Shown here piece by piece: positions 1-51,370 of a stretch of 64,000 bases of DNA; the first letter of the stretch is position 1, and each line of letters begins with the position of its first letter. This DNA is from Amphiscolops sp. MND2022. Taxonomy: Eukaryota. Under the pieces are notes generated by a model. The model had not been told where the DNA came from, made no database searches, and worked only from the letters and a program-made list of their open reading frames with translations. Where the stretch lies: positions 14,200,001-14,264,000 of the forward strand of contig OZ076409.1 in the NCBI GenBank assembly GCA_964187785.1, read 5' to 3'. Made by a program: the position numbers and the translations under genes.

Positions 1-972
1 TTTATTCCTTCGGTCTGAAGGTGTTTTGTGATATTCGAGGAATCGATAAAGTTATCTGTTTCTATCCAATAACGGTCTTTAATTATTGTCATTCTTCCAA
101 TGAATTCCTGTAGTCGAAGTATGAGGCAAAATTTTTCATCAAACCATGTTAATATGTATGGAGTTCTTGTGGTGGGTTTACAAAATCTTTCTGAATGATA
201 ACATGGTATGGTAATATATATCCACCATGAATCATTTGATTATTTCTATCGTCATAGGTTATTTCAGCATTAGTTATTCTGAGTTTCCAGCTTTCTCGGG
301 TTATTAAATGTTCTCTGTCGCTTCTACATCTTGAATTTTAATTTTGTGTAAAATTAACTATCCAGTCTTAGTAATGTTCATCATATACGAATGTTCCAAT
401 ATGCCAAGCGTTTAACTTGCTACTCTGAATGGTTTTTGAAATTGTTCAATTTTGTTTCGATAATCGCTGTCATCAAAAAATGAGAAAGAACTTTGTATGT
501 TGTAATTGTTTAATTCTTTACTATCAGTTGCGTTTAAATATCTTATCATGTTTTTACATTCAATAGGGTCAAGTCTTTTCGGAAGTTCTAGTGTATTTTT
601 CCCCATTTTAAACGATCATATCGTCTACTGGATGAAAAAGTTTGGGAACACCAAACTTTTTCTGTTTTTATATATGCTCCACATTTGAAGGCTTTGATTC
701 TTTTTGCTTTTGCTCTAACATATACTGTTGCTTGAGTTTTCGTATGATGTATGTCTGAGGATGCTTGTTTACATGGTTCAACATGTAGTAAGCTGAATTG
801 TCTTAAGTTGTTTTGTTTTGCACAGTCATAATGGGATACCATAAGGTTCTAAATGTTTGGGTCTTGTGGTGAAATATGGTTTTCTGGGTTCGTTGTATCA
901 GCTTTAGGAACTGATGTCGTATTAGCTAGGTGTATTAGGTAAACAATATGTAATGAAAAGTACGTCTATCAT
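1..972 (-). pseudogene. env: env-like glycoprotein, N-terminal part (class III fusogen-like), disrupted
   Basis: ATG at 972 gives a signal-like start (MIDVLFITYCL). Then SHYDCAKQNNLRQFSLLHVEPC, KAFKC, KVWC, DPIECKNMI and LPCYHSERFCKPT..TWFDEKFC across frameshifts. Lies downstream of pol. Confidence 0.7.
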
Positions 973-1372
973 AGTTAAAATATAGTTCTATAATTAAGTC
1001 CTGAATATGGGTTAAAGAAGTTTATATGACCAGTTCTAATTTCTGGTAATTCTGCGTCACAGAGACAAGAGATTGAAGTAACTATGAATGGTGAAGGAGT
1101 TGTTTTATGTGCTACTCTTGTTGAAAGAGGAAAAGGATGGGGGTTTAAAGAGTTGAATGTAACTTCGACTTCAAATTTTAATATTAATTGAGTTTCTTGT
1201 AATCTTTGTAGTTCTCTTTGTTTTCTTGAGTTTGAGAGAGAGAGAGCTATTATTTATAAATCTAATAGGGAGTACTGTGTATCGAGGATCTTCGTTAAGA
1301 CTACGAATAATCGTTGAATTAACACGGATAGGATATCGTGTGGGTTTGGTGTAGGAGGTCTCGAAATTTCTT

Positions 1373-2068
1373 CTAAAAAATATCAGGTAATTGTATTGAT
1401 GAATCAGATAGTATTGAACTAGGTGAATAAACTCGTGAAAAGTTTGCGGCGCTATCTGATATAGTGTGAGGGTCTTCTGAAATGAGAGATGCTGATTCAA
1501 ATCCTGTTGTGACTTGAAATGCCAATGATAAGGAAGATGGTATTGTGGGATGAGATGAGGAAAGAGAAGGAGTGTCTGATCTGGGTTGTGCTTGTTGTCT
1601 GACTAGTCTTGAGTTTGTACTAGAACTAGTTAAAGATGATAGTTCCTGAGAAAGTCTTCCTGGTTGAGATCTGAGGTTATAACTATGTCTTGGTACTCGG
1701 GTACTAGCTGTCGAATCAGAGTCTTTATCTTTATGGTATAGATCTGTTGAAGAAGAGGTAGTGGTTGATTTTAGACGTTCTAATTTTGGATATAATTGAG
1801 AGAATGTAAATGAACTTATATCATATGGTGAATTAGTTGTTTGTTCTGGTATAGTTTTGATTGGAGTTCGACTTGTTGATGGTATAGGAGTATTCTTTGG
1901 TAGTGTTGGTATAGGAGTTTTTCTAATTGTTTTTGTTGCGGTTGGTATTCTGTGTGAACAGGAGCTAATGTATTGAAGAACTGAATCAGTATCAGGGATA
2001 TGAAACGTACGGGTAGTAGGAATAGGTGGAAGAGGGGGTTTATTTATGATACTTGAAGTATCTTGCAT
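1373..2068 (-). CDS. Ser/Thr/Pro-rich low-complexity ORF between integrase and env (pol tail or accessory ORF)
   Basis: 231-aa ORF on the same strand as pol; contains HSYNLRSQP. Confidence 0.45.
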   Translation of the reverse strand: MQDTSSIINKPPLPPIPTTRTFHIPDTDSVLQYISSCSHRIPTATKTIRKTPIPTLPKNTPIPSTSRTPIKTIPEQTTNSPYDISSFTFSQLYPKLERLKSTTTSSSTDLYHKDKDSDSTASTRVPRHSYNLRSQPGRLSQELSSLTSSSTNSRLVRQQAQPRSDTPSLSSSHPTIPSSLSLAFQVTTGFESASLISEDPHTISDSAANFSRVYSPSSILSDSSIQLPDIF

Positions 2069-2498
2069 ATTAGAGGTAAGTGATTCATCACACGAGTCAC
2101 TTGCAGGTGAATTTTTTCCAAAAATGGCAAATTTTGTGATTGAGTTGTTGTTGTTGTTTGAGTTTGGAGTATTGGAGTATCATTAGGCGTTGCTGTTATT
2201 CTATCGGCAGAATATGGAGCGGATGGATTAGGGTTTGAGGGTGAGTAAATCAGTATGTCCGTACCTGAATTTAGATATGCGGTATATTCAGGTAGTGTTT
2301 GGAATGAATGGGTTGAACTAGATGATGAATTGTTTCTAACTGATGAAGGTGAAGGTCTATGGCTATCAATCTTGAAGTATTCTTTTGTAATTTGCAGTTC
2401 ATAAGTTTCACGAATATTGTCAAATTTTCTTTTTAGTGTTCCTTTTCCAGGTTACTATTTATCTTCATTTGTTTCTAGCTTTTTCATTCAACATTCAT

Positions 2499-5400
2499 TC
2501 AACAGGATTTTTGAGAAAATGAAATCATGTCCTTTTCACCAACGAAAAGTCGATTGTCTTTTCGTGGTTGTGGGCGGAAATCATATCTGTCATGGGTGTG
2601 TCTTCGCGGGTTAATATATTTGTCATAGTCGTGAATATTAGATTGGTTTTCTGAGTCGGTGTAACTGCTTTGTTGTTTATTTTGTTGATACGGAAATGAG
2701 GAGTATTGGCTAAATGGTTCTGGTTGGAAGTCAATTGTGGATGGTAATTCTGTTTCTTTATAGGAATTTGTAATTTCGTCTTCAACTAATTGTTCTTCAT
2801 CTGAAAAAGACACAAAGTAATTTTTTGAGTCGTTTATATTTGAGTTATTATTATCAGTATAATTATTAGTAGAATGTGTGGTATATTTTTGTATGAAAAG
2901 GAAAATTATTTGTTCTTTTGGGTAATAAGGAACTAAATGGTTTCTTTGTATATGCGAAGTATAAACATTTTGATTAACAATTTCATATGTAATGTCAGAA
3001 ATTTTGTTAATGATTTTAAATGGTCCAATTCTGAGTGACTTTAGTTTATCTGAAAAATGAACATGGAGAAAATTCCTTTTTAATACGAAAGTACCGATGT
3101 CTAAGAGTCTCGGATTATTATATGTTTTATTGAAATAGGCGAATGAATAAATTTTTCTTTTTGTATTTTCATATACTGTGTGGTAAATTTGTATCATAGC
3201 TGTTTCTGTAGCCAGAATCCATTGTGAAATTTGTTTTGAAAAAATTTTATGGAAGAAGGGGTTTAAAATTGATTTGTAAGTGTGTATGAAGTGGTAAATT
3301 CTGAAAAAAAATGAGATGTACAGTTTTGATACGTGTCTTGTTGGAGATTGAGTTCAAAGTTAATTGGGATTGTTGGTATAGTGTGAAATACTATTTCGTA
3401 TGGCGAAAGATTTAATTCAGAGAGTGGTTGTGAATTATGTGCATAAGAGTACATATGGACTTGGGTAGACTAGTTTTCTGGCGTATTATGTAAGAAAAGT
3501 CGAAGATGGGTTCCAAGATTTTTGTTTTGGTTTCCTACTAAACCATTTGTCCATGGTGCGAAAGGTGTTCTTGGTGAATGTCTAATTCCCATTGTAGTAC
3601 AAAGGTTTGCAAGTTCTGAATTAATATATTCTGAACCACGATCTGTAACTAAATACACGGGGGGTCCAAATTTAGTAATCCAATGATGTAGCAAAGAGTT
3701 GACAGCATTTTGGGCATTGTTTTGTTTAACGAGTACTGTTACTACAAAGTGGCTAAAAGCATCTACTATCACATGAATATTTGAGTTTTGATTAGATGGT
3801 GGATTTAAAGGGCCTTTTGTATCCATTGATTTTCGATTGTTGAAATATGAAGCATTTTCTGAAAATGTTTGTATTGTTGCAGTTTGAATTTTTTGGTTAA
3901 TGTGTCTGTTTTGTTGACATTCAATGCAATCATGAATGAATATCGACATCCAATTATTTACAAATGGTATGAAATAAAATTGATTAAAGGCATTTATGGA
4001 AATTTTAATTCCTGAATGTCCATGTGCATGGAGTTTATTAAAAGCTGCATGGAAGAATTTAAATGGTAAACATATTTTGTTGTTTTGATTTGGGTTTGAA
4101 TGATGTATATTAGAATAATATATATCGATGATTTTTGTTTCATGATTTATGTACAATTGGAGAAAGAGTTTGTAGTAAACTGATAGTAAAGAGTTACTTG
4201 TTATTATTGGATCTGTTTGTAAAAGTCTTTCGTTACTTTGTAACCAATGATAAACTTTTTGTAGAACGGGATCGTGTTTTTGATGTGATTTTATAGTTTC
4301 AATTGTTATTGGGGTATCTTCTGGGAGGAAGAAATAATGAAATTATTTTTTATACTTAAAGAAGGATGGATCAAAAAATGGAACCTGTTGATTGCAATAA
4401 TCAGATTTAGTGGGATATTGTAGTGCAAGAGTTTGTTCTTTTGATGTATTTGTGTTCTGATCTTTTATATCTTGTGGTTGATTTGGTTCATCTTCATCAC
4501 TGAAAACATCAGTATCATTAAGGATAGTTGATTGTTGTAGAAGTGATTTTGTTTTGTTTTTTGTGGGTCTTTTGTATTAAGATTCAAATGGAACAATGGA
4601 TTGGAAGGAAAATGAATCTAAAGGTTTTATTTGAATATCTTCTCCATTGTTGTTTATGCGAATGGAAAATTGATCTTCTCCATAGTCAGCCAGAATTGGG
4701 TGGCAATCAATTTTTTGATTGTATTTGATTTCTTCATGTTTTACCAAATAATGCAGAGGTTTGAGTTGGTTGACTTTCATAATAGAGAAATGGATTTTAG
4801 GTGGTAATTGTTTATGTCGTAATTGATGTATTTGGAGTTGTTCTTTGGTAAAGGTTCTTGAAAGCACATCTGCTACAGTTAGGTTTTTTCCAGGAGTGTG
4901 AATAATTTTGAGTTTCGAAAACTTTGTGAGTTGCATTTGTGCTCCGTAAAATCCTGGGCTAAGGTTTCCTATTTTGGCAAAACAGTGTAATAAAGGTTTG
5001 TGATCTGTAAAGATGCATATTGGATGAGGAGATCCAATAATGAGAACTTCATATATTTGTAATGCATAAACTACTGCAAGAAGTTCTCGGTCTAATGTTG
5101 AAACTTTTTGTTGTTGTGTGTTGAGGATTCGAGAGGTATAAGAAATAACTTCCATTTTTTTCTTCGTTCATTTGGAATAGGAATGCGCCTAAGCCAACTA
5201 AGGAAGCATCGACTGTTATGGAAAATGGATGTTTGGTATTGGGTATGGTTAATTCGGTGTCTGCTGTCATTGAATTTATATCATCTTGGAACATGTTTTC
5301 TAATTCAGGTGTCCATTGGAATTTTACGTCGTCGTGTAATAAGGTATACAGCAGTTTGAGATTTATACAGCGGTCCTAAAAACTGCCAAACATCTTTCTT

Positions 5401-7300
5401 ATCTTTTGGTGATAGAATTTTTCTGATGGCTTCAATTTTTGATGGGATTGGTTTAATTGTGTTATTTCCTATTTCATGTCCAAGGAACTTTACTTTAAGT
5501 AACATGTAAAATGATTTTTCAGGTGCAAGTTTAAGAATTTCTTTCGTTGCTATTTTATGGAGTTCTTTGATGAGTTCAAACATTTCTTATTTATCATCTG
5601 CTAGTAGTAATATATCATCAATATATACAAGTGCAGAACGTTTATCTATGAGTGATCGAAAGAAGGTTGACATCTGTTTTGTGAAAAAGTTTGGAGTCCT
5701 TTTAATCCTTAGAATCCACGGATAAAGGTATATAATGTGTCTCCGGATTAAAATCCTGTGATTTTAATTGTTTCTTCAACTAATGGAGTATGCGCATATG
5801 CGTACAGTAAATCAATAGTTGATTTGTATTTTTTGTTAGCTCTGGCTAATTTTGGGACTAAAGGTTCAATGGGCCAAGATTCAAGTTCTTGATTAGTGTT
5901 TGAATTTAAGTGTCTTGCATCTAGAACAACTTTTATTGAGTCTCCTTTAGGAATAATAGCTAAAGGGTTTAAAAATGTTGTTCTAATTGTGTGTTTTTCA
6001 TCTGACGAAGAGCCAATTTGTTTTATTATATTATATTTCTCAAGTTCTGTTAAGAGTTTGTTTAGTCTATCTCGATAGTGAATTGGGACCTTAGAGGGTC
6101 TTTGCGTTTGCAGGTCACAGTTTTCTTTAATTCTAATTCTGAATGGAGTAGAATTTTTTCCTACGTCATTTTTGGGTTTAGCGTAACAATGTTGATTGTT
6201 TATAGGAATATTGCATAGGTTTACATATTCAGTATCGGTCAAATCAGAGTATTCGAAGTTAAACTTTTTTATAAATGGTAGGGAAGGAAAATCTTTTCTG
6301 ATTTTAACTGAAGGTCGAATATTTCCTTTGGAAGAATGTATAGGTAATTCAAGTGTTTTGTCATTGATTTCAATTTTATTAATTTTTAATAAAGATTGTG
6401 GAATTACTCGAGTACATAAATTCATATCTGTATAATTATTTTGTTTATTTGGAAGAGTAGTAACAGGATGATAGGTATGTATTACTAAATGAATGAGTGA
6501 GTTTACGTCTTGAACTCTATAACGAGGAGGTGTTGTTTGAATGATAGGATTCTCTTTGTATCCAATAAATCCTCGTGATAATGTAGCTGGATGAGATGTG
6601 GAATTTTGAATTACTGTTGAGCATGAGTCTTTTATGATCATGTCTAAGAAATGAAAAACATCTTTAAATTTTTGTAAGAAGTATGTATATGGAATTGATG
6701 GGTAGAATTTAGTATTGTCTTCTAGTTCAAAGTGTAAGTTGAGATAATTTTTGATTGGGAAATGTATGGTTTTTCCTGACCTCGGTTTAAAGTGAATTGG
6801 TTCTTTACATTCGATGGTATAAATGTATGAAATATATGGGTAATCTTTTTCTGTGAATGTCGAAAAACGTGTTGTTGTTGGAAGTTTTGGATGTTGTTCT
6901 TTAAAAGTCATAATATTTTCTTGAAAATCTATATTTTGAATACTTTTCTTGAAGAAAGGTGCTCCAAGAATATAGTACTTAATGTTTGATACTGCAAATT
7001 CAATATTGAAAGATCGATTTTGATGATTTACTTCGGTAAAGCATGTCATCGAAACATAAGGTACTGTTGGTACTTCAGTTTGATTGGCAACTGTAAAAGT
7101 TTTTGCTCGTTTATTTTCAATGTCCCTTGGAACTTTAAGGTTTAACTGTTTTGCAATTACATGAAATATTGGTAGGTTTAGAACTGAAATAGAAGCTCCA
7201 GTATCTAAGAGAAATAGAATTTCTAATTTTGAAGGTAATATGTTGTCTTTTCTTTCAGAAGCTTGTATATATAGTGGATAAAACCAACTATAGGGAGTAA
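2499..7300 (-). pseudogene. pol: pol (protease, RT, RNase H, integrase), fragmented
   Basis: FLLDTGAS (~7200); VVLDARHLN, YKSTIDL and VYIDD in RT; TVDAS, ELLAV and TDHKPL in RNase H; HAHGH..CIEC, MDTKGP, VTDRG and GPF in integrase. Confidence 0.92.
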
Positions 7301-10300
7301 TTCTGTTTGCAATTTCAGTGACTTGACATGTATGATTTTCAAATTTAGTACTATCTTTGTCATAAATAGATTTAACATCTACTTGATTGATTCTGTTTTG
7401 TTGTCTGTTCTGAGAAGGTGTTCTAGATCGTGATCTGTAATCTCTTGGTTTGGATGGAGATCTCTATGGGTAATTATATCGTCTAATTTCCTTGTGATTG
7501 AGAGCGAGATCTATATCTTGACCGAGAAATATAGCTGTAATAAGAGTTGTTTCTGTATGGTGATCTATTTGGGGATCTGGATGGAGTTCTTCTTTGATAA
7601 TGGTTGTCATTTCTAGATCTAGATGAGTATGGAGTATGGGATCTATTGTAGTATCTTTGTCGAGAATTAGATCGATAGATTTTTTTGAATACTTTTTACT
7701 GTTGCTTCGGTATCTATCAATATTTCTATATTTATCGCTATGGTAGGAGTAGTTTTGACTATATATATTATCTCTAGAAGAACAATCAGTCTTATTATCA
7801 GTTCGGTTATCTTGAGAATTGCTGGGTTTACTACGGAAGTATTGTACAAAAGATTGTTGGGGAGTTCTTGGTCTCGGATTTCTATCATTTTGGTATTCTT
7901 CGTCACGTTGTTTTTGATAGCAATTTGAAACACCGTGATTGTTTTTATGACAATATGTGCAATATTTCTTGTAAGCTGGTTTACTCTTGTTATTTGGGTC
8001 TCCAGGCTGAGTAACCATTATATGGCCAGGTTCTAATTCCTTGTCATTATTGTCGTTTTCAATGGATATTTTGTTTATCTCTAAGGCTAGAACATTGGTT
8101 CTTATTTTTACGTTAGCAGTATCTTCAGAGTCAACATGTCGAACAAGTGTGTGAAATGGTATTGATGGTTCAAGTAACGTTGATATGTGTTTTACTCTTT
8201 TTTGTGTGCAAAATCCTTTACCTTTTTAACTAGTCCTTTTGTAAAAATTTCATTGTTTTTAAGGTTTATAGTGGCTGCATTTTAATTGCACCATCCTCTT
8301 TTAACTAATTGTTGTACTTTGAGAGCAAAATGGCGTACTGCTTCATTATGTTTTTCATGAGTGACATAGCTTCTACTTGTGCGTAATGGCTGTTTTTTGA
8401 GATGAAAATTGTTTTTTAAATACTTGTACAAATTAATTCCATTGTTGTTTATATTAGATATGGAGGTTAGTGTACCAATCGAGGGCTGTTCCTGCTAAAG
8501 AACATTGTATGTATGCCATGCGTCTAATATGCCATGATCTGTATTTTACAGGATTATTTTGAGGTTCTTCACCTATGGCAAAAGTTAATCTTGCTTCAAC
8601 TTGTTGTAAATGTTCTTCTGGGGTGTAGGAGTGATCTAAACCGTCGAAAGGTTTCATAAGTTCTGGTATTGAAGCTGAAGTATTTATGAATGTATCTTGT
8701 TGTATTGGTATATACTGAGGTGGAGGAACTACAGATTGTGCCATGTTTACAGTTGGTGAAATTTGAGTGGGGTTGTAAGTCGTGTGTTGATTCATTTGAT
8801 ATAAGAGATCGGTTGATAAATACGAAAGTGGAGGATTTTGGAATCGTCTTTTAGAAGATTGTACAATGTTAGGATATGGTATCCTTTGATTTTGTGAAGG
8901 AAAACTTGTTTGATTGGAATTTGTTGATAGCGGATGTGTGTATGAGTGATGTGCTAACAAATTGGGATTACTATTAGGTTGAGAAGTATTTTAATCATTA
9001 TTCGTTTGAATATTTGTATTAGATTGTGGATAAAAAGAGTAATTGAATGGATCATATTATCGACTGGAAGTTTGCTGATTATTATTGTCTTCAGATCGAA
9101 TTGTTTTGTTTGGATATTTAAATGTAGAAGGGAGTGATGGAGGATTGTACATAGATCGAGTTATATTTTTTGTAGTATTTATAATTTGTGTAGTATCGAG
9201 AATAGTTCTTGTAGGTGACGAAACATCAACAGAAGGATTACGGAGTGAAGCTATGTTTTGAGTTTCATCTTGTATTTCATCATCTGAATTAGAGGGAAAG
9301 TTGAAAGTAACGTTGCGTCGTGGAAATGTATCTGCGTATGATTGTGGATCATATGTATTTGGTCTTGGATTAACAACCCTAGTTGGAACTCTAACAAATT
9401 GGTTGTTTGTTGATGTCCCAGTTTGTGATGCATCTTGTGCTGAAGTTGTAGATTCTAAGGTGGTAAATTCACTTGTATTGTTTTCAATTATACGATTTTC
9501 TTTTTGATTTTCAAGAGTGTAATCTTCATTCTTGTTATCGTTTTCCTTATAGTTTTCATTGGTAATAAATAGACTTTGTTGTTCTTGAATATTTTGTTCA
9601 TAACGATAAGGTCTATTGTCATCAAGAAGATTGTTTTCTGTAATTGAACTAGGATCAAAAGATATAAAATCAATGGTTTGTTTTGTAATTTTATCTGGTT
9701 TGAAAAAAGAAGGATGTTCATTCTTTTTATTTATGATGAATGGTAGACATTCATCAGCTGCAAAATGAGTTGTGAATACTGTGGAAGCAGGTTGATCCTG
9801 TTCTGACCATAGTGGTTGATAATTGAATCTGAAAATTTTTCTAAGTAATAAAGATGTTAGTTTAATTTGAGGTTTTGATTGTTCATTCAATGTTATATCT
9901 TTAAAATAATGATATAAGAAACTTTGTATCCGTATTATATCTGTTTGTAACCAATGATGAGGATTATCTTGAGTGGTAACTATTCTTTCAAAACCTTCTA
10001 CTTCGAAATTGTGTATACATTGTTCAAGTTCTTGAAGTGCATTTGGGCTATATTTTGGATTTCCAAGTGCTAAATTGAATTCTTTCACTTGGTTTAAGAA
10101 AGCATAGAAAACGTCTTTAATATGGATTTGGAGATTAATTGGGTTAATTGTTCTTCTATTTGTTTGGGTTGAAGACGTTTCTTGTTGAGGGAAAGTAATT
10201 TGGAATGATGGATTTTCTGTAGAAACAGTTGTAGATCTATGTCTAATATAGAAGAGATATGTATCCAGATGTTCTCTAATAAGAGGAATTGTTTCAAGTT

Positions 10301-10460
10301 TGTAGGGTTCATTTCCAAATGAAAGTGGTTTTGTATAAATAGAAACAATGTTGTGTAGAAATGGTTTTATTTCTGTTTTTATTACTTTTGAATTTTTAAT
10401 GTTAGGTATTTCAAAAGGTGAAGGGGAAGATTTTGAAGATTTCATGTTAGAGATTTTCAT
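7301..10460 (-). pseudogene. gag: Long gag with premature stops
   Basis: ORFs 9057-10508 and 8454-8960 are in the same frame, separated only by stops. Capsid-like KPFDG..SLAGTALDWY, knuckle CTYCHKNNHGVSNC and an R/S-rich tail. Confidence 0.8.
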
Positions 10461-10659
10461 TGATGTAAGTAGTTTTTCCAACAGGATGCAAAATAGGAAA
10501 GAACGCAAAATGTATATGTGGTGATAAGGATTATTTGGTTTATATTTGGATTATTATTTGGATTATTTCCTAATGAGTTCTGGCTAAAGCTCAGGTTCGG
10601 AGATCATGGTTTATCATCCATGATTAAGGATTTCACCATACATAGATCATTACCGTCTG

Positions 10660-10900
10660 GTAAACCGTTCTGGAATGCGAGAAGTTTGGTTTTTAAGACC
10701 AGCGGGCAGATAGACTGGAAGAATAATGTTGGATCTCTGGAATGCAGCGCTGCGAACACTGCGACTTTCAAAGACGGGGACAAACTAGTGGCAGCTCTGA
10801 AAAACAGCAACATCCAGGGGCGATCGGGGGCTATTCAGTTCATTATTGATCGGTAAGATCCAGGGATGAACTCAACGTATCCTCGTTGCAAGCTCATTCA
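10660..10900 (+). pseudogene. Possible captured fragment of an ionotropic glutamate receptor / ANF-receptor-type amino-terminal domain
   Basis: GC-richer island in the AT-rich leader. IDWKNNVGSLECSAANTATFKDGDKLVAALKNSNIQGRSGAIQF resembles the C-x(n)-G-x2-L..ALK..GxSGxIxF end of iGluR ATDs. Confidence 0.35.
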
Positions 10901-12389
10901 ATTCATGTCATTTCTCAGCAATTCCGTATCTCTGATTTAACCCAAGTTCACCAGTCATGGTTTTTCATGCATGACTCATGGGTTTGCCATGCCGAAAACC
11001 ATAACTGATCATGGAAAGATTTGGATTATTTTGGTTTATATTTGTATTATTTGGTAACTTTCTCCCACATGGTATGTTGTCTAAATTTGATATTGAGAGT
11101 TCTTGTTACTTTTATTGAGAGTTGTGATTACGATAATCTAAAATAAGAATGTAAAAGTGTTTAGGAAGGGTTCAAATGCAAAAATGTTGTGATAAGGGAC
11201 GTTTTTATTTGAAGTTGTGTTTAAGTTCGTGATCTTGGGTAAGTTTTTGTTGGTTCAAAAGATAGAAAAAATATTGTTCGTATTGTGGAATTAATCTCTC
11301 AAAGTCTACAATTGTAGGGTTATAAATAGGGTTGGATATATGAGGAATTATATGTGTATAAAAAGATATTGGGGAAGTAAAAAAAGTTGAATTATTCAAG
11401 GATTGATTATGTGTGTTTGAGTTCATAGATTTTATCGTGTAGGGTTTTATTATTAAGGATAGAGAAGAAAGAAGCGGATGCAAAGGAATCTGTATTCAAC
11501 CTCAAGGATTGTTTACAGAATCACTTTATAATTTTAGTCTGAATTAAAGAGTCTGACATAAGGTCACTGACACGCCCAGTGAAAGTTGTATTTTAGAGCT
11601 GGACTGCAATTAAGGTGTCTAACATAAGGTTACTGACACGTCCAGAAAAGTTTAGGGGGTTTCAATTTTAAGTGGGTTGTGTGTTTTAAGACTAAGGGAG
11701 TGGAACTCTGAACAATCAACGTCCACTATCCAAAGTCGGATCAATACTGATCAAATCAAAAATTGATCTTTTGTGTCTTTTAGTTTTACTTTTACTTCCT
11801 GAGAATTTCGAAGATTCGAACCTAGATCGGTGTCCTCTAGATTCTCCTTAATGACGTTTAAACTTAGCTAAGGTGTTTAGTCAGTCCTAATCTCAGATAA
11901 TGAAGCTGAAAGCTAGAATCTGATTGTTTAGGTCTTACGGGAGGGAATAGGAATTGCGGGTGCCTGAAAGTATAAAACTACCTTTACAGTGTCTGTTTAA
12001 TTTGCATGTCCTATTTTAGATTTTAGGGCAAAAAAGTTGTGTTAAAACTATATGCGTAGGTTTGTTAAATAAATTGTTTTGCGAATTGTTAACAATATTA
12101 GAAAGATTGAAGATGTTGTTGACAGAAAAATGTTGCGACTGAAGTAGCGGAAGACTTGGTTTCTTTTTATGATTTTCAGAGTCTAATTCTGAATGTAAAT
12201 TTTTTGAAGATTTTTTTAGAAAATGGATCCGAAACGTAAGAGTAGAAAATCCAGGTATTCTGCCAACACGAAGATGATCTTGAAACGTATGTGCTTATAG
12301 GTGAGGTGAGTCTGGCATGCACTCAGTCAACTATTACACCAGGAGTCCACCTGACGTTCAAAATGGCAGGATTGAAGAATTTATTGCCG

Positions 12390-12660
12390 TGTCAAAGGTG
12401 TTAGAAAACCTTGATAAACCGACAGTAGACAAACTGTTTCAACAAGCTTCCGTATAGCTGTGATAAATCAGTATTCAGAAAGGAACTGTGTCATTGTGGA
12501 TAAATCAGTCTGAAAAGAAGAGCAGAACTGTGTCATTATGGATAAATCAGTCTAAAAATGAACGGTGTCAACGTGTTAGAAAACGTGATAAACCGGCAAT
12601 CAAGAGAACAGAAGAAGAACCGTGTCGACGTTTATAGAAAAACGTGATAAACCGGCAATG
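12390..12660. repeat. Short imperfect direct repeats in the retroelement 5' leader
   Basis: Three copies of gtgtc..tagaaaa..tgataaaccg and three of gataaatcagt. A ~29-bp pair also occurs near 11550 and 11617. Confidence 0.7.
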
Positions 12661-12861
12661 GAGAAGTTTTGTTATACTTCAGATGGACAAATTTTTTGTC
12701 TAACGATAATGTATATTTTGAAGAAATTCAGAAAGTTACAGACTATATTTTCCGGAAAATCTAGAAAAATATCAATGCAATCGAGAAGAATTTCAAAGAG
12801 GAGGAGTGGTAGTTTTTGTATTGATGAGAGAAGAGAAAGCATTAAGTGAAAAAGAGAATTT

Positions 12862-12876
12862 TTACAAGTCGCACCA
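12862..12876 (-). promoter_or_regulatory. Putative primer-binding site of element 1
   Basis: Minus strand reads ...GCACA att TGGTGCGACTTGT. Cognate tRNA not assigned. Confidence 0.6.
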
Positions 12877-12879
12877 AAT

Positions 12880-13175
12880 TGTGCTGCTTTAAAGAGTAGT
12901 AATTTTTAGTTAGTGGTCTTGTATCTAGATGGTACAGGTCTAAGTTTTAGGACAAGACTACTTAGATCGATGCTAGCTAGCTAACTCTAAAAAAGCTTGG
13001 AGGTCTGAAAGAAGAAAGGAAGGAAGTCGACTAAATACTGAATTTTAGTTTTCTCTCTCTGAAGGAGTAGTGTTTTACAGTCATTCAATAATAAATAAAT
13101 GTACATTCTAGAACATTCTATAAACATCTAAGTACTATTGGTTTTTAATGTCAGTACACCATCCTCACGGATACA
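12880..13175 (-). repeat. Putative 5' LTR of element 1
   Basis: TGTATCCG...GCACA bounds next to the PBS. No partner LTR in the window, so the outer edge is uncertain. Confidence 0.5.
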
Positions 13176-13764: not shown

Positions 13765-15128
13765 ATGACTGGAGACGACGAAAACGAGCAGCAGAGTTCC
13801 CCCGTCACCGAAGAAGATCCCAGCGGCACCCACACTCCCGTCACAGGTGGTAGTACACCACTTCCTATTAAGTCCACTAAAATTTTCTTCGTAGGATTGG
13901 TCGACGCGGCGAAGGAGCGTAAACAAACTGCCTATAAACGAATCAAAGAAATGGAAAAAGAACTGAAAAGATATAAATTTGAAGAAGAAATAGATTCGGA
14001 CGACTCCATGGTTCTTGAAAATGTATCTAGAAAAATAAAAAAACCCTGTATGAAAATTTGCCAATAAAACCAGAAAAAATCCCCAGTAAAGATTACACCC
14101 GCAGTTGCTAAAGCCAATGGGTGGAATGTTACTAAAAAAATTGCTGCAATGCCTACTTGTTTAACATTTTGGTCCATTGAAGAATTTGAAACTGTCCCCA
14201 AAAGAAATATTGAAAAAGAACCCAGTTCTTATCCCCCACAGTTTGATGAATTCTTGGAAGTTTTGAAACGCAAAATGCAGCAATATCGCAGCCAGCGAGC
14301 TACTCGGTCGGAATTAAAAGCAGTTAAACATTGGGAAAATGAAGACCTAAGAGACTACTCAAGAAGAGTACGTCAGCTCGCTGATATAGCCTTTGCTAAA
14401 AAATCGCTCCGGGAAGAGAACGCGATATGAGAGATCAATTTGTCGAAGGACTTTTTAATTCGCGAATACAACTTAATTCGTATGAAGACGAGCGTGACCG
14501 TGATTTCTGGGAAACTTTGCAAAGAGCACAGGAACCCGAAACAATCCACAAGACTCATGAATCAAAAAGAGACCGAAAACTTAATGAATTGCGCTATTCG
14601 CACGACGAATACGAGGATCCCGATCTAATAAGAGCTGGCAATTCGAGTAACAATCAAATTGAAGAAAAATTTGTCGCCCTTCAAACATCTCTAACCAATG
14701 TGGCTAGTCGCTTTGATTGCTTCGAAAATTCCATCTGCCAGCAGATATGCAAGCAAACTGATCAAATGACGAAACACTTGGAACGAAGTTCCTCAAAACA
14801 AGCCGAGTTGATGACCAGACAAAACGAAATCCTGATACAGGGTATGAAAGACATGTCATCTGCGGTCGTAGGAGCGTTAGGAAGTTCGCAACGGCCGGTT
14901 GGTGGGCAGCCTCAGAGTTGGCAAGCTCCCTGTTGTCAAGCCCCTTTCACTCCTAACTTTCGTGCGCTTCTGAAAAGAACCGGATCGTCGGGTCAGTTAA
15001 ATATTTCCCACCCTGCCCCCAAAGAAGCGGAATGTTTTAATTGTAGGGCGATAGGCCACTACGCTAAACAATGCCCAAGTCTTCCGCAATCTAATTTTTT
15101 AAACTACCGGCAGCCGAGTATGCAGTAG
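13765..15128 (+). pseudogene. gag: gag of element 2, fragmented
   Basis: LRDYSRRVRQLA..RDQFVEGL capsid-like motifs, knuckle CFNCRAIGHYAKQC, and slippery T TTA AAC at 15098-15104. Confidence 0.85.
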
Positions 15129-17745
15129 CAGGATCTACTCGAGCTTGGGATTCTATCCCTTTCCCGGCTGCTACAAATTTTCCACAAACAAGTCAGCGTG
15201 TTTGTTCTAGATCTAGGAGTAATGATAGGCGTTTGCGACCGCGCAATCGCAGTAGGCGGATCCACCAAGAATTTTGGAAACAAATATGTGATGAGTTTGA
15301 TCCGAGAGGGTTTTTTTACAGAAGAGTCCCATTCCCCTATTGTAAATATTCCCCCAATACAAAATTCCTTTGAAGATAAGCAAGCAGAGCCTGGCTCTGT
15401 GAAAATGTTTTCAAAAAAGATCCAGAATTTCCGAATCAGGCTCGACCTGATGAGTTAAAATCGACAAAAGTTGCTCAAAGCAAATATATTCCTGGGGCCA
15501 CGCTTTTAATCCCCTATGAATTAGAGAACTTGCGCTGTTGGGCCAAAATAGATACCGGTGCGAGTAGAAGTTTGATGAGTTTAGGACTGGCTAAAACTAT
15601 TGGTAATCCAATAGCTCCCAATCCCAGTAGTTTAATCGGTCCAATATCCAATGAGATGCCTACCAAAGTAAGAGCAGAGGTTAAAATCGGAAGTTGCGTT
15701 GCTTCCGATGAATTTGTTGTTGTGGAAGATCTCTATACAGAAATCAAAATTGGCTTAAAGTTCATGATAGAAAACCAATGCACGACTGACTTAGTCGAAC
15801 AGAAACTAACAATTCCAAAAGATGATGGTTTCATCATCAAAGTAACCATGCAAGTCGCAAGTGGCCATGTTCCTCCGTCGGAAGATGACGCATTCGTTTG
15901 CGAAACGGTACCCGGTCCTGACACAGTGTCAGCGGCCTCCGAAATAAACAAAAAAAAATCGAACAGGAAGTAGACGAAAATTTAAACTTAGCTACCCCTG
16001 GACTCGAGAACACCGAAATACAGGAAAAATTGCGAAATTTGATTCGTGATTACAGAGATGTGTTCTCACTGCCTTCGGATCCGCTAAGAACCGCAGTAGG
16101 AGTAGAGCACCGCATAGACATAGGCGATGCGAAACCGTTCAAAATCCCGCCTTACAAAATTGCTCCGCACAAACTAGAAGCAGTTCGTGAAGAAATTCGC
16201 GAGATGCTTGAGAAAGGAGTGATAGTACCGATTAAAAGTCCTCTCAGCAGCCCCATAGTTATGGTGCCTAAGAAAGACGGCTCAGACCGAATGTGTATAG
16301 ATTATCGAAAGTTGAACGACCTTACAGTAAAGGACGCGTATCCGTTGCCACGGATTGGTCAAACGCTTGATGCACTGCAAGGGGCGGGTGTTTTCTCGTC
16401 TCTCGATTTAGCAAATGGCTATTGGCAGATTCCAATCGCGACCGAAGACCAACACAAAGCGGCGTTTTGTACTCCTGATGGAGGATTAAACGAGTGCTTG
16501 AAAATGCAGTTTGGTTTAACGAACGCCCCGCCAACTTTCCAAAGGAACATGAACGGAATTTTTAAAGAAGACCTGTATAAACATGTGCTCATATTTCTCA
16601 ATGATGTATTGACTTTTAGTAAAACTCTGGAAGAACATTTGGAGCATTTAGAAAAGGTGTTCAGAGTATTGCGTAAAGCCGGTTTACGTCTTAAAACCGC
16701 AGAAATGTAATTTGTTCCGCACCGAAGTCCACTATTTAGGTCATGTGATTAACAAGGAAGGAATCCAACCAGATCCGAAAAACTTAGCGGCAGTACGCGA
16801 ATGGGAACCTCCGAACGACGTCTTCGGAGTTCGCTCATTTGTTGCCTTCTGCAACGATTATCGGAAATTTGTCCAAAACTTTGCGGAAGTGTCTCGGCCA
16901 CTTCATTTGATCCCCCAGCAAAGGGTTGAAATTCACATGGACCGAAGAACACGATAAAGCGTTCCTAACGCTAAAGAAAAGATTGTTAGAGGCTCCGATT
17001 CGGGCTTTTCCCAATTTTGAATTTCTGTTCGTTATTGATACCGATGCTAGGGGTACAGCGCTCGGCGCAGTTTTGTCGCAAGTGATTGATGGGATAGAAT
17101 ATCCGATTGCCTTTGAGTCGCGAGTGCTAACAAAAACTGAAGAAAATTATGCAACGACTAAGAGAGAAGCCTTAGGAGTAGTTCAAGCCGTTCAGTGGTT
17201 CAGACCATACATTTACGGATCCAAATGCATTATCCGCACGGATCATGCAAGTCTCCAATGGTTGTTTAGGCAAAATGCGGATGGAATGACTTTTCGAATG
17301 GTCCAAAAACTTCAGGAGTACGACTATCAAATAGTACATCGTCCAGGTGATAAACATTGTAATGCAGATGGCCTTAGTCGAAGACCGAATGACGTGCCCC
17401 AATGGCTCCCCGGCGAAGAAGATGCGTTAAGAGGACCGATTCCGGAATATACTGAATTTGACAGCACGCTATTCGAAGCCGAACGCGACCTTCGGGCCGC
17501 CCAAACCGAAGCTCGTGAGAAATTGGAAAAGTCAGAGGATGTAGCTGGGCATTTAAAAATGCAGATTTCTCACCCACCAAGAGAAGTAGTCCGTTATCGA
17601 GAAGGAGATTTTTTTGAATCCTCCGAGTCTTTAGTATTGTGTATATCCGCAGATATGAGAGTAGTCACTGCTCCCATGAAATCGTTTGTGAAAGAGTACT
17701 CCCATTTGCCCTTTTGCAGAGTCGGTAAATCGTGTTGGAGGCTTT
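15129..17745 (+). pseudogene. pol: pol of element 2 (PR, RT, RNase H, partial macrodomain-like segment)
   Basis: IDTGAS; RMCIDYRKLN, SLDLANGYWQ, FGLTNAP and FLND (mutated YxDD); DTDA..EALGVV..TDH..NADGLSR. Confidence 0.93.
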
Positions 17746-18437
17746 CTAGTGAAAATTACTTTTGTTCATTAACCTGACAGTGGTGTAATATAAAACATCA
17801 GAAACCCCCAAGAATAAAAACTCACTATGGATCAATGCACTGAAAGCAGATAAAATTAAAGTGAGATGAAGAAATCATCAAACGCTAACTAAGATTGTGC
17901 TTCAATATTACCAGAATTTGTTGGAGATCTCATTTAATTGCTTGTACAAATGAACGGTAGAATTAGTTCGCCTAACTCGCCTAAATTTTTGTTTGATGCT
18001 CCGGGGCAAAAGGTATGGTGGGTCTCCTTTGGTTTTTATTGATTTTTAACTTGTAAACCGCAGCTTATGTTTCGAATACGAATCACCAATATGAAATAAT
18101 TGTTCTGTTTGATTAGATCATTTTATATTTTTGAAGTTACTTCGTCGTTTTTAATGGGTGGTCTGCGTTTGTTTGCATCAGCCTAATCAGGTTACCACAG
18201 TCGCCTTCACAAACCGTTGTGATTAGTTGATTGTTGAGTCCATTGACTACTTTGACTGTGTTCAAATCTGTGACACGACAGAACAATTATGAGCCGTAAA
18301 AAAGTACCAACTGTTCCTCACTCAATTTAGCTGTCAAATCTGAGCACTACACTGGTAACGCGTGTTGGGTCGCGTTTCTCTCGGTTCCAACGATACGACT
18401 ATCCTGTTCGTTGGTGACAACCAATTGTTTAGCGCTT

Positions 18438-18909
18438 GGTGAGTGGTCACTTGGCTTAAGGTCATTTGGTTTATTGCTTTGGTGACTTGGCTTAATTTCT
18501 AAAAGCCAAACGTCTTGGGTAAATGGTCACTTGGCCTAATTCCATTTGGCTGCAAATCACTAAGTTGAAAACGCGTGGCAGATTTTGTCGAAAATGATAC
18601 TTAGAGGTAGTCAGACGCCATTTTCACATACCCCTAGTGCCCTAAATGCAGGAGTGAAGCGGAGCGCTCTGCTATATGGCCATGCCTCAAGGTTGCTTCT
18701 TGGCGAAGGGAGCGAAGCAACCGAGCCATACAACCAATATGCTAATTATTTCGTTCAAAATTCGTTTCAGTTTTGGCATTCAAAAGGTTGTTTTAGCCAT
18801 TAATTGAGTTAGAAAATTCTTTTAGCCAAATGACTCGAGCCAAAAATTTAGCCAGATGACTCGAGAAAAAAATGAAGCCAAAAGACTTTGAGTCAAGTGA
18901 CTTGTAACC
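18438..18909. mobile_element. MITE E: non-autonomous TIR element, ttggctt-arm family, core type I
   Basis: Inverted arms ggtgagtggtcacttggctt ... agtcaagtgacttgtaacc with repeated subterminal motifs; no clear TSD. Confidence 0.7.
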
Positions 18910-19934
18910 AAGCCATTTTGTGAACGAAAAATGTTCGAGTGATTCGACAAAATAGTCGCTAGTGTGTCACTCGCACATAAAGGCGAAACCAAAAACGTGG
19001 TAGGAACTGCAAATTCGTGATACGGATGATGCGGCTCGACCACCCAATTCAGCCGGCAGAGCCAGCTGAATACTCGAAATATCGTCAACATTTACGTGCA
19101 TACTTTGGAAAGCCCTTTCCACGTTTTGTCATTGTTCTCAAAAGCGTTTTATGATTAGAACACATGCTGGTTTGTAGAAAGTTGTTAGTTCGATTAACTG
19201 TCGGGGTAACGCACTTTTTTGTCTGATGCTCTTGGTATGCTAAATGCAGAAGCGAGGTGCCTTTTCTAGTAGATCTTCGTGGTGCGATGAGAACAATTCC
19301 TTTTTTCACGCAATCAGTGGTTACTGGAGAGTCACTTTTCTCAATCTAACCTGTCGATGTCTGTTTTCTCAGGAGTCGAAAAACCGAGTCAAACAAAACT
19401 GCTTTTTGGTAGTTCAAAACATAAGGATACCTATGATGAGCAGCTATACAACGTACTTATGCTAGTCTGTGCAATATACCAAGACGCAAAGTAAATTGAA
19501 ATACGCAAGAAAAAAAGTAATGGAATTGTTGAACACGCCAACGTTTAAAATCGGCGCTATACCCAAGGCTCAAAAAGCGCAAAGTTTTTGAAATTGTAAG
19601 GCCCTTTCTGAAAATGCAGTTTGTCGCAAAATATCAAAACAATTGAAGGAGGGACATTGAAAACTTTCGAAAAAATGGCACAGAGGCGAACAAAATTATA
19701 AGGGGACCCTACAGTCTCATCCGGTTTTGTATCTTACGTTACCAATGGAATAAACGAAGGGGGACACTTTGAACTAACTTAGGTGCGTTTCCGGTTGCCG
19801 GTTCAGTAATTGAGTAGTACTGTGAAAAGTGTCGACTACGCAAGTGTCAGACAAAACAAACTAGTCACTGTAGCAGTCGAAATTTTTGCATCTAAAAGAA
19901 AAGGCGCCGACTAAAAACTGTATGCCCAATATTG
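18548..19934 (+). repeat. ~1.4-kb direct duplication, copy 1
   Basis: Near-identical to 33678-35087 (scattered substitutions and a few small indels). Confidence 0.95.
19532..19917 (-). mobile_element. Non-autonomous Helentron/DINE-like element (second copy at ~34677-35070)
   Basis: Subterminal inverted repeat tcggcgc / gcgccga, terminal hairpin and A/T-run ends. Termini related to 46307-46781. Confidence 0.55.
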
Positions 19935-19939
19935 GCACC

Positions 19940-20560
19940 GTCGATCCCAATACGATGAAGCTGCCTGATTTTCTCGAAGAATTAAACCAGGGAGCCGAGA
20001 AGGCGTTTGGTGATCATGCACAGAAAATGATTGACAACTTGCTTTACGCAAAGCTGCCACCTAAGTTGAAGCGGTCTGTCAACATGGTCAGATTAGAAAA
20101 TGGCTCATATGATGAAAGTGTTGCTCATTTGGAGCGAGAGTTGGAACTCAACGCCCTTGAGGAATCAGGTGTCCTACCAATAGCCACAATGACCTTCTCA
20201 ACTACAAAATCTAAAACTCCTCTGTCCACTGGGCAAATGTCAGACATTACTTGCAATTATTGCAAGGAAAAAAGCCATATGGTCAAGGACTGCGAAAAAC
20301 TCAAAAAGAAAAAAGAAAAAGAGGCCCAGCAAGGCAAACAAACACAGAAGAAAACGTATCCGGAGTGTGGCACTTGTGGTAAAAAGAACCACCCGGAAGA
20401 AAGATGCTGGCAAGGTGCTGGTGCGCATCTCAAACCCAAACGCACCAGACCAGATGACGCCAATGACGATAAGCCCACTTCAAAGGCCCAGAAACCGCAA
20501 AATAGACCAACATCTTCAAACTCACAATCCTCATCCTCTAATGACGAGTCAAAAAACTAA
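19940..20560 (+). pseudogene. gag: gag C-terminal half of element 3
   Basis: Two knuckles, CNYCKEKSHMVKDC and CGTCGKKNHPEERC. A AAA AAC slippery site at 20551-20557 leads into the -1 pol frame. Confidence 0.85.
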
Positions 20561-23500
20561 CTTCGCCACGACTCCAATACAACGAACTGATATCCGTCCG
20601 CCAATACATCAGGTCGGATCCTCCAACAAAAACTTTTCATCAGGATACACAACAATTGATGGGCTATCCCTCTGTTGTCTGGTAGCAACAGATGGACAAA
20701 GCTATCACCATCACCTATAACAACACCCATTTATTCCAAAAACCAATTCCTGTTTGGGACCCTGACTATACCACCGCCTTTACTACCCGGTTCAGGCCCA
20801 TTCCCTTAGTCGATAACTACAATCCAACGTATATCGATCAAGAATACGGCAGAGATCCCTATTGGGACACCGAGATCTATAATCAAGAGCTATTACAATT
20901 TCAATACGTTCTTGATGATATTGAACACTACAATCGGACAGTCCACGAGAACCCTCCAATCACCCACAAAAAGAAGACCCGAGCATTAATTGAAAACTGG
21001 CAAATGAATGATGGCACAAACCATCCAGTGTTCCCAAACCCATTGGGGACCGAGACCCATGACAGCAATGTTGAACCCATACCACAATCATTGCTAGACG
21101 AGAAACAGTTCCAAAATGTCTTAGTCACTAGAGACGGTGAACCAGACTGTATACCCCTGTCAACCAACATCAACCTCAAATGCAAAAAACGCATGTTGTA
21201 TTTCCCAATGGACTTTGGGGATTTGACCATTGACGGACTCATTGACACTGGAGCGCTGTCCAGTGCAATTCCTGAAATGGACCTCCGGAAAATTCGACTT
21301 TTATCTCCACAATCCGTTATCCGGGAAGGTCCGCCTCCGAATTTCCAAATAATGGTCGCTAATGGGCAATTGGAAACTCCTAAAAGTACAATAGAGCTCA
21401 AATTTGAAGTTGGTGACATCGAGTTTCACGAGATTTTCATAGTGATGGAACATCTGACAGGTCCGATCATTGGACTAATGTTCCTTCAAAGAAACCATAC
21501 AGTTCTGGACATGCGACAAGGGATACTGAATTTCCCGTTCTTTTCGATGCAGCTGAAAACGGCTGACCATAAGTATTCAAATGTGTTAGAACCAATTCTC
21601 AACCCTATTGAGATAACTATTCCACCAAATGATAAAGTCCTAATTAGGACCAATTCCCTACTCTACCCTGAGAATGCTGTCACTGGAATTTTGCAACCGA
21701 GCGACCTTCTACGTGAAGAAGGCGACATCACATTTTGACCAGCTTTGGTCACTCTGAATGACGGCAATATATTGATACCAGTAAACAATTTCACAGACCA
21801 CCCTTATAAACTCAAAAAGGGACTTCAAATTGCCAATTTTTCTGTCATGACGCCAGAACAGATGAAATATGTCAACCCGGTAGTTCCGGCATCAACCTGG
21901 CACCTTTTGCAGAATGACCAGGAGCAGGCAGCCCACTATGTCAGCAGTCTCATCAAGACCAATAGAAATCCACAAAATCCGAAAATTATTGGTTCCCGAC
22001 TCCAGAAAATCCTGGAAATCCTGAGGAACACACATCTATACAAAAACGAATCCTTCGAGAATTACAGGCCTTACAGGACCTGGAGACACTTGACCCCACC
22101 AAAGATGAGGAATCGCGTGCAAAACTCTAAGAAAACTTTGACTGGAACGATTCCACCCTTACTCCTGAAGAGAAGGAGAAAATTGAGGAATTGTTAGTAG
22201 AATTCTATGACATCTTTGCACGACACCGATTTGATATAGGCATGAACGAGGAATTCAAGGTGAAACTGACGCCTAAGGACGATTCCCCAGCCTATAGTCA
22301 AAGCCTTCCAGCTCCTATCAACTTGAAGGAGGACATCCTAGTTGAATTAGCCTTGTTACACAAATATGGCATAATAACTACACTGCCATTTTCAAAATAT
22401 GCGAGTCCAATATTTGCACAAAAGAAACCGAATGAGAAACTCCGACTCTTGGTTGACTTGCGAAAAATCAACAACCTCATCTGGGATGATTATATCAACA
22501 ATAATCACCCCGTCAGTACACTAGTTGATGCTGCCCAACACTTGGCAGGCAAAAAACTGTTCTGTAAATTAGACTGTTCGCAGGCATACCACTGCCTACC
22601 AATGGCCGACCAACGTTCAATCGAAATGTTGGCTTTCAATTTTGCCAGTTGCACGTTCGCCTAGAGACGTTTGGCACAAGGCCTTAGTCGGTCACTATCC
22701 GCATTCTCGAGTTTCATGAGGGAATACCTCGACAAGGTCATTAAAGCGGACCAGTGTGCCCAGTATGTGGACGATATCGGCATCGCAGCCAATGATGTTG
22801 ACCACCTCATGACGAACCTGAGAGCTACGTTCAAATGCATTCAGGAAGCAGGCTTTAAGTTAACAATGCATAAATGTCACTTCGGTGCAAAAGAAATTGA
22901 TTTTCTCGGACGGACTATTACCCCACAAGGCGTCAAACCCCAGAAACAGAACGTGCAAAACTTTCTGGAAAAGACCAAATTCCCGAAGTCGAAAATGGCT
23001 TTACAGCGCTATTTGGGATTCCTTAACTACCACAGGAATTATGTCCCAAGACTCTCCGAACGCCTTGCTCCATTCTACAAGATGCTCAAAAGTGACGAAA
23101 AGGTCCTAGTATTGAAAGAATTAGTCCAGCAATTCGAAGAAATCAATAGAGCACTAGACAAATGTTGCAACCTGGCCCTACAGCAACCCATTCCGAACAA
23201 GCAAATAGAACTAAAGACTGATGCAAGTTTTGGTGCAGCCGGGTACGCGGTCCTAATTGAAGACGACCCAAGCCAAAAATTTACATCACTCAGAAAATCG
23301 TATGCACCGGTCGCATATGGATCAAAAACTTTCACCCCAGCACAAATCAAGATGTCAATATATGCCAAGGAATTCCTTGCTTTTTATTTTGCATTCAAAG
23401 AATTCGGACATATCTTCTGGGGTGCGCCGAAACCGGTCACCATCCTTACGGACAACAAAGCTGTCACGAGATTTTTCCAAACGAAAAAAATACCCCCAGC

Positions 23501-29000: not shown

Positions 29001-30334
29001 AGGAAGCGTCACCAGTGCCGTCACTGCTCGACCCAAGCTGATCTGAGGCTGTTCCTTGTGGGTCACTCCCCGTTTCAGAATCACTTTGGCACCCAGGTCC
29101 GGGGGTGTGTGCTCTCCTCTTTAGTTGGAAGTGGGAGGTACGTGAAGGGAGAGCGGTCGGGGTACCTCGGACGGCATCAAGTACCATTCTTTCCATAATA
29201 CTGAAGGATTTGCGGAGGGTCTCATCCGTGAGGGTACGCAGGAGGTGATGAACCTGGGGCTCTGTGAAGGCTACGGTAGTATGCCCAACGGGAAGTCTAA
29301 TAGGGGAAGCCTCCTCGAAGTACTCTTTCAGGATGGCTCTACTGCGACCTGAGAGATCTGGGAGTTTGTCTTGGTTTGAACTCCCGCCAGCTGTCCTTGT
29401 TTTCCCTGTCTCCAAAGGCTGCCCTTCGGAACTGGTATCCCCCTCACATTCAGTTCCGGACTCAGGACCGAAAGGGGGACGTCCGTACAACTCTACCGGG
29501 ACCAGTCGACTTGACTCTCCAGTAGACTCTTCTTCTTCACCCAACCCCTCAGCGAACCGTACTTTGGGGTCTTCTCCCGGGGGAGCGGGTACATCACAAA
29601 TTGACGAGACATTATCTTCGTCAGTCCTGGATTGGACACCACTTGCGTCCACTTGGTCTGAATTAGTCTCGTTTCTCAATTCAGGCAATTGGGACTCAGA
29701 GGCCTCGATGACTCTCAGGGCAGACTCCAAAGCTGACAAGTGAGCTTCTTGGACCTCCTCCTCATCAGACTGGATGGGTGTACTCGACCTTCGGTTCTCG
29801 GCAGTCGTTAATACCAATCCTGGAGGGTCATTGACCTGTTCTTGGCTCTGCAGCGGGACAGACGTAGGATGGTTCTCTTCGTGTGTAGCGATAAGTTGTG
29901 TCTGCTGCATTCGTTGGAGCATGGACTCAGCATATGATGTTACATCGGGGTCACTGTCGGCGCTGTGAGTAGAGGTGATGTCATCTGCTCGGCTTCGAGA
30001 CAACTCTTGGGGCACACTTGGATTCTGGATTTGTGGTCCAGTTTCGGTTGGTGGACTAGCTGCTGAAGTAGTGGCAGCAGGTTTGGCTGGTGCATTGACA
30101 ACTTCAGTTGTTTGATTCTCTAAACAAAAAGAGATAAAGTTTCGCGGTATGCTTCCTCGAAAAGAATCCATTCTACCGCATAGAAACCTTCCGGAAGTAC
30201 TTGAGAATTTGAACAAAATGTGCTGTCACGCGCTTATTAGTGGAAACAGGAAGCTTTTTGTGAACAAATTTAGCCCTGATCAAGCTAAACTATTTCAATA
30301 TATGAAAACCAGAACAACCTGTGTTTGAAGACAT
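26006..30334 (-). CDS. Spliced antisense gene: disordered N-terminus, BED-like zinc finger, degenerate hAT-transposase-like body
   Basis: ORFs 28171-30216, 27572-28129 and 26006-27175. GT-AG intron 28151-28221 joins two of them in phase 0; further introns likely near 27187-27235 and 30120-30318. Finger WCHICRKNFSIKSKGPYEILRHHRTDRH. Confidence 0.65.
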
Positions 30335-50714: not shown

Positions 50715-50979
50715 AGTGTCAACTGCTCAATCCGGTAATCAATCGCCAATTCTTGAAGAATCAACCCAATACTGTCGATTATACTTGCCTTCGTTGACGA
50801 ACTTGATTGTTTCAGTGGATCATGTCCCTCTGACTTGATCCCTTTGCTTTACTTGGTGGATTTACTTGCAATGACGTCTTACACCAGATCTTTGCTTCAA
50901 TCAGGAATACGATCCCAAAGAATACAATTCGTCTCAAAAATAGAATTGATGCACAAACACCTCCAGAGTGCCGCTAAAG

Positions 50980-51300: not shown

Positions 51301-51370
51301 AAGATCCAGTTCTTGGGCGATCTTCTCAGTTGTCCACCAACGAGTCGTCTTCGTCCTCGTCTTCTTCTTC

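Follow-up and report, generated by a model that had tools for sequence, protein, structure and literature searches.

Env remnant at the edge of the window

Does an acoel genome carry a Gypsy-type retroelement armed with a class III membrane fusogen and, if so, was this env captured independently of those already described? We addressed this question in one stretch of 64,000 nucleotides from Amphiscolops sp. MND2022, hereafter the window, whose features are collected in Table 1. The original prediction had placed a signal-like start and a cysteine-rich pattern downstream of pol. Both were present on the minus strand, env lying downstream of integrase on the strand shared with pol: a hydrophobic N-terminus begins with the ATG at 972, and a single open frame holds YDC, FSLL, VEPC and the next two cysteines. 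The pattern does not form one ORF as had been supposed. The EC, an LPC-like word, the FC, the TW and the last C were found, but across three further frames, and LPC itself is interrupted by a frame change near 210. In all, the frame shifts four times, near 945, 600, 420 and 210, and the reading is interrupted by three in-frame stops, one near 850 and two within 212-418. This env copy is a pseudogene; it is dead and makes no protein. It is also truncated by the window edge at position 1, with about residues 1-320 of a protein of ~858 aa inside, and both the anchor in the membrane and the element's 3′ LTR fall beyond the window.

When compared with Pfam, the 86-aa open piece matched PF24664 (Monjiviricetes_fusion) with 23.2 bits, short of the 27-bit cut-off, and the short pieces from 1-600 gave no Pfam match individually. 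The four frame pieces aligned consecutively to residues 6-323 of the natural protein P0037, with 84-90% identity, and to residues 21-336 of another, P0320, with 75-83% identity. Because of the PF24664 match and of these consecutive alignments to natural proteins, the pattern is not due to chance. No second env match was found elsewhere in the 64-kb window.

Table 1. Features of the env-bearing element, numbered from the first letter of the window.
Feature	Positions	Strand	Content and evidence
Env remnant, class III (gB / chuvirus-G-like) glycoprotein, N-terminal ~320 codons	1..972	-	Signal-like start, first crown strand, fusion domain; fold predicted from natural relative P0320
Longest open env piece, 86 aa	588..848	-	YDC...FSLL.VEPC...C...C pattern; PF24664, E 2.1e-5
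Integrase-env spacer	973..2498	-	S/T/P-rich open frames (1373-2179, 2044-2451); no Pfam match better than E 0.06
Integrase, broken	2499..4342	-	H2C2 zinc finger, rve core, GPF motif with SH3_Tf2-1 / Integrase_p58_C
Ty3-type RNase H, two frames	4577..5375	-	PF17917, E 4.5e-13; PF17919, E 1.5e-10
Reverse transcriptase, broken	5376..6200	-	YIDD motif near 5625; collinear with L001 pol
Aspartic protease	7068..7220	-	LLDTGAS; PF13975 weak, E 0.075
Gag, broken	7464..8990	-	Capsid-like region and CX2CX4HX4C zinc knuckle (7920-7961)
497-aa open frame upstream of gag	9057..10550	-	
Leader / candidate 5′ LTR zone	11050..13100	-	Element-like strand skew; 46-bp repeat at 11542/11608

Gag, pol and leader upstream of env

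Read along the minus strand, the gene order is gag, protease, reverse transcriptase (RT), RNase H, integrase and env. The pol domain order PR-RT-RH-IN, the GPF integrase tail and the best Pfam matches are those of Ty3 / Gypsy-type elements. With X in place of its stops, the RT region had a sole match in the PDB, 4ol8 (E 1.7e-4), which is named as the Ty3 RT in PMC9040795. Further comparison was made with L001, an intact locus described below: the integrase is 37% and 28% identical to its counterpart, an insert of ~350 aa between protease and RT is common to both elements, and gag gave a weak match (E 2e-4) to the L001 gag, a Retrotrans_gag. The spacer between integrase and env probably combines a leader with a low-complexity tail of pol. 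The 497-aa frame upstream of gag, without any match in Pfam, in the Atlas, or among the stored proteins and loci, may be a long gag N-terminus or an accessory ORF.

A strong strand skew is continuous from position 1 to about 12-13 kb. Neither an LTR pair, nor a PBS, nor a target-site duplication was found for this copy within the window; no LTR pair is expected there, since the 3′ end of the element lies beyond it. The leader is interrupted at 10530-11060 by ~460 bp of unskewed DNA of higher GC content, with a near-duplicated stretch of ~30 bp on both sides, probably a small insertion.

Intact relatives of the env and their abundance

A search with the 86-aa piece retained 278 of 316 candidates at E<=1e-3, the best being 93% identical, and one with the protein P0167 found 181 of 3103 candidates. 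All matches listed were ENA proteins, mostly from long contigs; they were read as proteins, and env behind pol is visible only in L001. With a profile, 2469 representatives were reached at E<=1e-3 and 335 at <=1e-30, including full-length proteins at 21-30% identity. The Atlas search returned only class III glycoprotein clusters, at values up to 0.86.

Intact relatives are 857-918 aa long, one of 858 aa being 75-83% identical to the window pieces. Their N-terminus is hydrophobic, their ectodomain has 14 conserved cysteines, and a membrane helix lies towards the C-terminus. They also carry the PF24664 domain, which passed the cut-off in all seven long relatives scanned (60-130 bits). Cluster sizes were 1758, 1585, 995, 603 and 424 members, figures that count protein fragments, perhaps from more than one assembly, and not copies per genome. 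Of seven clusters, each with 15 members listed, four had full-length ORFs among those members (2, 3, 9 and 7) and three had none; the 2 belong to the window's own subfamily (857-858 aa), which is 52-60% identical to the other subfamilies, where full-length ORFs were retained. In the 911-aa subfamily, the 9 full-length proteins (of 15 listed) are 97.7-99.7% identical, a sign of recent amplification. In a tree of 29 env rows (quick method, midpoint root, no viral or published references), the family forms one clade, a result that bears on neither donor nor direction. A literature search for an envelope or glycoprotein in acoels or Xenacoelomorpha, the scope of which left out most subscription journals and Repbase, brought up no description of such an element. 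This env family is seemingly undescribed and very abundant, while its kind is already known.

One member of the window's env subfamily, P0316 (1323 aa), has env duplicated head-to-tail in one open frame, either a tandem duplication or an assembly artefact.

Predicted fold, cysteines and membrane helix

AlphaFold2 was run on the unaltered natural relative P0320 with a 45-row alignment, and gave a model with a pLDDT of 70.2 and a pTM of 0.49. In it the strands of the fusion domain are long, the central helix covers 45 residues (437-481), another helix spans 696-733, and the tail is disordered. The comparison with chuvirus G and herpes gB by Foldseek, proposed at the outset as a check, came out in favour of the class III assignment. 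In the PDB, HSV-1 gB was matched at E 1.2e-12 and all rows listed were herpes gB; among viral models, the best matches were the glycoproteins of Tacheng tick virus 4 and of chu-like, xinmo- and qin-related viruses, with E values from 4e-30 (Tacheng tick virus 4 / chu-like G) to 1e-24 and 12-16% identity. Global TM-scores were low, 0.14-0.21 for gB and up to 0.34 for viral G. With VIA-align the top 8 rows were gB or rhabdovirus G (Z 8.3, middling for a model of this size), and compact domain matches were obtained for PRV gB domain IV (Z 6.2, rmsd 3.8, 156 residues) and for rabies G (Z 5.2, rmsd 2.7, 69 residues). A PDB sequence search with the env profile gave nothing meaningful (1 match, E 0.37). 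We conclude that the env fold, as modelled on its natural relative P0320, is class III.

Of the 45 alignment rows, 37 exceed 550 aa, and in these the 14 ectodomain cysteines are retained at frequencies between 29 of 30 and 37 of 37. The C-terminal membrane helix that had been anticipated is present in the intact relatives: in P0320 a hydrophobic helix spans ~704-722 (KD 1.59), and across the relatives the hydrophobic stretches at the N-terminus and near 704-722 have KD values of 1.3-1.8, the membrane helix being moderately hydrophobic (1.4-1.8). By hydropathy and model helices, the ectodomain lies between the signal-like N-terminus and this C-terminal TM segment, and a low-complexity cytoplasmic tail of ~100-200 aa ends these proteins of ~860-920 aa. 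A furin site of the R-x-K/R-R type was absent from the seven relatives scanned.

L001, an intact element with the same gene order

In a scan of other loci by distant alignment, 12 of the 57 metagenome stretches and none of the 32 viral stretches were confirmed. Close alignment confirmed none of 29 viral, 295 metagenome and 20 genome stretches. Among the 12 loci, gag-pol was seen upstream of env in L001 only; L006 has non-pol ORFs upstream of env; in L012, which is AT-rich, an env (21% identical to P0320 over 214 aa) lies upstream of a Ty3 gag (886-6053); and the remaining loci are too short to tell.

L001 (13,166 bp) is intact and encodes gag, PR-RT-RH, IN, env and two paralogous extra ORFs, in the same gag-pol-env order as the window element. 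Ty3 is the nearest match to its RT (E 6.5e-35). Its pol aligns collinearly with the window pol, at 27-37% identity, and between its env and the window env family the identity is 31-33%. At ~12,150-12,168 a polypurine tract is followed by TG, which suggests that env lies within the LTRs in L001; the two ends of the contig have a short repeat in common. The two ORFs after env (368 and 312 aa, at 9651-12092) share 35% identity along 188 aa and gave no convincing Pfam match. They are possible accessory genes inside the element.

Origin and possible function of the env

We consider it highly probable that the window element is a decayed copy of an abundant invertebrate Ty3/gypsy LTR retroelement of gag-pol-env order, which by the operational definition of Chary and Hayashi would be called an HSV/gB-type errantivirus. 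The proposal that a Gypsy-type element carries a class III (gB / chuvirus-G-like) env was borne out by the Ty3 pol, by PF24664 and by the Foldseek and VIA-align matches. The broken ORFs count against this copy being active, not against its membership of the family.

The env would have accompanied this pol lineage over a very long period. In L001, pol and env are about equally diverged from those of the window (~30% identity for both), which fits long co-inheritance rather than a fresh capture. By analogy with class III fusogens and with Drosophila gypsy, intact copies would make a trimeric type I membrane fusogen coating gag particles, which might then be fused with neighbouring cells, probably germ-line or stem cells, and the element would in this way spread between cells as well as within them.

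The alternative that best withstands the data, rather unlikely in our judgement, is that env is a passenger: intact but unused for entry and amplified only by virtue of being enclosed by the LTRs, or else retained for a role other than fusion, such as receptor interference. The preponderance of fragments among the listed cluster members, with full length at 2 of 15 in the window's subfamily and 3 of 15 in another, agrees with this, as does PMC13524379, which states that the entry mechanism of gB-type elements, without herpes gD/gH/gL, is open. Yet frames of ~900 codons with all core cysteines have been kept across subfamilies that are 52-60% identical and as far as L001, at 31-33%, and this retention indicates long purifying selection.

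Less probable still is an independent, lineage-specific capture of a jingchuviral or xinmoviral glycoprotein by a Gypsy element, in the manner of Anakin. The better Foldseek matches of chu-, xinmo- and qinvirus glycoproteins compared with herpes gB, and the name of the Pfam family itself, Monjiviricetes_fusion, speak for it; there is also a BEL/Pao precedent in mosquitoes (PMC7642597), and PMC13524379, while arguing for ancient co-inheritance, allows multiple ancient acquisitions. But identity to the viral proteins is no higher than 12-16%, against 31-33% to the L001 env, with an L001 pol that is equally diverged; by eye, the cysteine pattern is in common with flatworm errantiviruses; and relatives number 2469 representatives at E<=1e-3. 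Nor is the combination an unusual one, as had been predicted together with the capture: gB-type env is widespread on Ty3/gypsy elements, ancient, and co-diverging with pol (PMC13524379), and F-type and gB-type env are equally abundant on these elements in most metazoan phyla according to the same source.

That env is a non-retroviral fossil of a chuvirus G merely lying beside a Gypsy remnant is scarcely credible. In its favour, jingchuviral G fossils are often near Gypsy fragments with no clear capture in the accounts given by PMC10084718, and 1.5 kb separate the integrase ORF from env. Against it, the two share strand and an unbroken skew, the clusters hold hundreds to >1500 members, the intact L001 has the same gene order, and no nucleoprotein or polymerase was found among the 13 element ORFs scanned with Pfam.

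Comparison with known elements and viruses

Like the HSV/gB-type errantiviruses to which we assign it, the window family combines a Ty3/gypsy pol, a class III env with signal and TM ends, and multiple copies, Schmidtea errantivirus families having 1-215 intact ones (PMC13524379). The closest known elements, judged by eye, are Schmidtea mediterranea errantivirus 1-6 (Platyhelminthes C1a, PMC13524379). In their env, eight domain I-II cysteines appear, by eye, to agree with those of the window family in order and in the 11- and 7-residue spacings. Gene order sets them apart: gag-pol-env in the window element, as opposed to gag-env-pol in the flatworm, nematode and bryozoan elements of PMC13524379. 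Compared with the errantiviruses of Chary and Hayashi, the window element also has a long ORF upstream of gag and very large clusters. Only copies with three intact ORFs are listed in that survey, whereas the window copy is broken, its sister env ORFs and L001 being intact.

The glycoproteins of Jingchuvirales, Xinmoviridae and Qinviridae (PF24664) are the best structural matches and have the N-terminal YDC...C and class III fold predicted for the window env. The env family differs from them in being retroelement-encoded, longer (~860-920 aa) and provided with a low-complexity cytoplasmic tail, and it is far from extant chuvirus G (12-16% in structural alignments). Anakin, a mosquito BEL/Pao element with a chuvirus glycoprotein (PMC7642597), is likewise an LTR retroelement with a chuvirus-G-like class III glycoprotein; identity with Anakin was rejected, the window pol being of Ty3/gypsy and not BEL/Pao type.

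Drosophila gypsy and ZAM errantiviruses have the same gag-pol-env Ty3/gypsy layout and a presumed cell-to-cell spread. Their env is an F-type protein in which furin site and fusion peptide are conserved (PMC13524379), unlike the gB-type fold modelled for the window env. An F-type errantivirus was rejected since the predicted fold matches class III, as had been correctly foreseen. Troyka, described in PMC12440569 as having no env, a CX2CX8-10HX4C knuckle and no GPF/Y motif, was rejected because the window element has env, CX2CX4HX4C and GPF. Odin, presented without env in PMC9040795, was rejected as well.

Xenacoelomorpha do not figure in the genome list of PMC13524379, and acoel terms occur in none of its 7 supplement files. 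We put forward tentatively, as a possibility that we would not yet call probable, that this phylum, absent from that survey, hosts thousands of gag-pol-env copies in several subfamilies, some recently active, with a class III env structurally nearest to jingchu-, xinmo- and qinvirus glycoproteins and with marine-metagenome relatives carrying extra ORFs. If so, a gap at the base of bilaterians would be filled, and a tractable animal would be at hand for studying the spread of gB-type retroelements and for testing whether such retroelements were the source of these RNA-virus glycoproteins and not their recipients. Here the gag-pol-env order goes with a cysteine pattern known otherwise from flatworm elements of gag-env-pol order, which bears on how frequently the ORFs have been rearranged. 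A high-copy family with recently amplified intact env is also a good place to seek transcripts, piRNAs and particles.

Other contents of the window

Acoel genomes are AT-rich with LTR elements dominant (PMC9911081). The window too is AT-rich and nearly all transposon, with mostly other transposons and tandem repeats outside the element, and it contains no tRNA or Rfam gene. Some elements neighbouring the env element may resemble acoel repeats. A second, env-less Gypsy family occupies 18548-25762 and 33065-34955; its gag-pol (19874-25762) matches two clusters, one of 850 and one of 1547 members, at 93-94% identity, and its 5′ part is repeated 15 kb away with 98-99% identity. A third Gypsy-type gag-pol remnant is found on the plus strand at 14400-17777. 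The element at 47058-51934 is a young insertion, in which direct repeats at a distance of 4.6 kb are 99% identical. It contains a 24-bp tandem array, and we take its integrase tail to be BEL/Pao-like. Rep/helicase-type ORFs at 53575-58191 (1038 aa open) are, we assume, Helitron-like. At 26006-30225 and 42759-43622 there are long minus-strand ORFs (390, 223 and 684 aa), presumably a DNA-transposon remnant, and a transposase piece that looks hAT-like to us. Finally, more than 5 kb of a 38-bp satellite with a 27+11 substructure cover 58700-64000.
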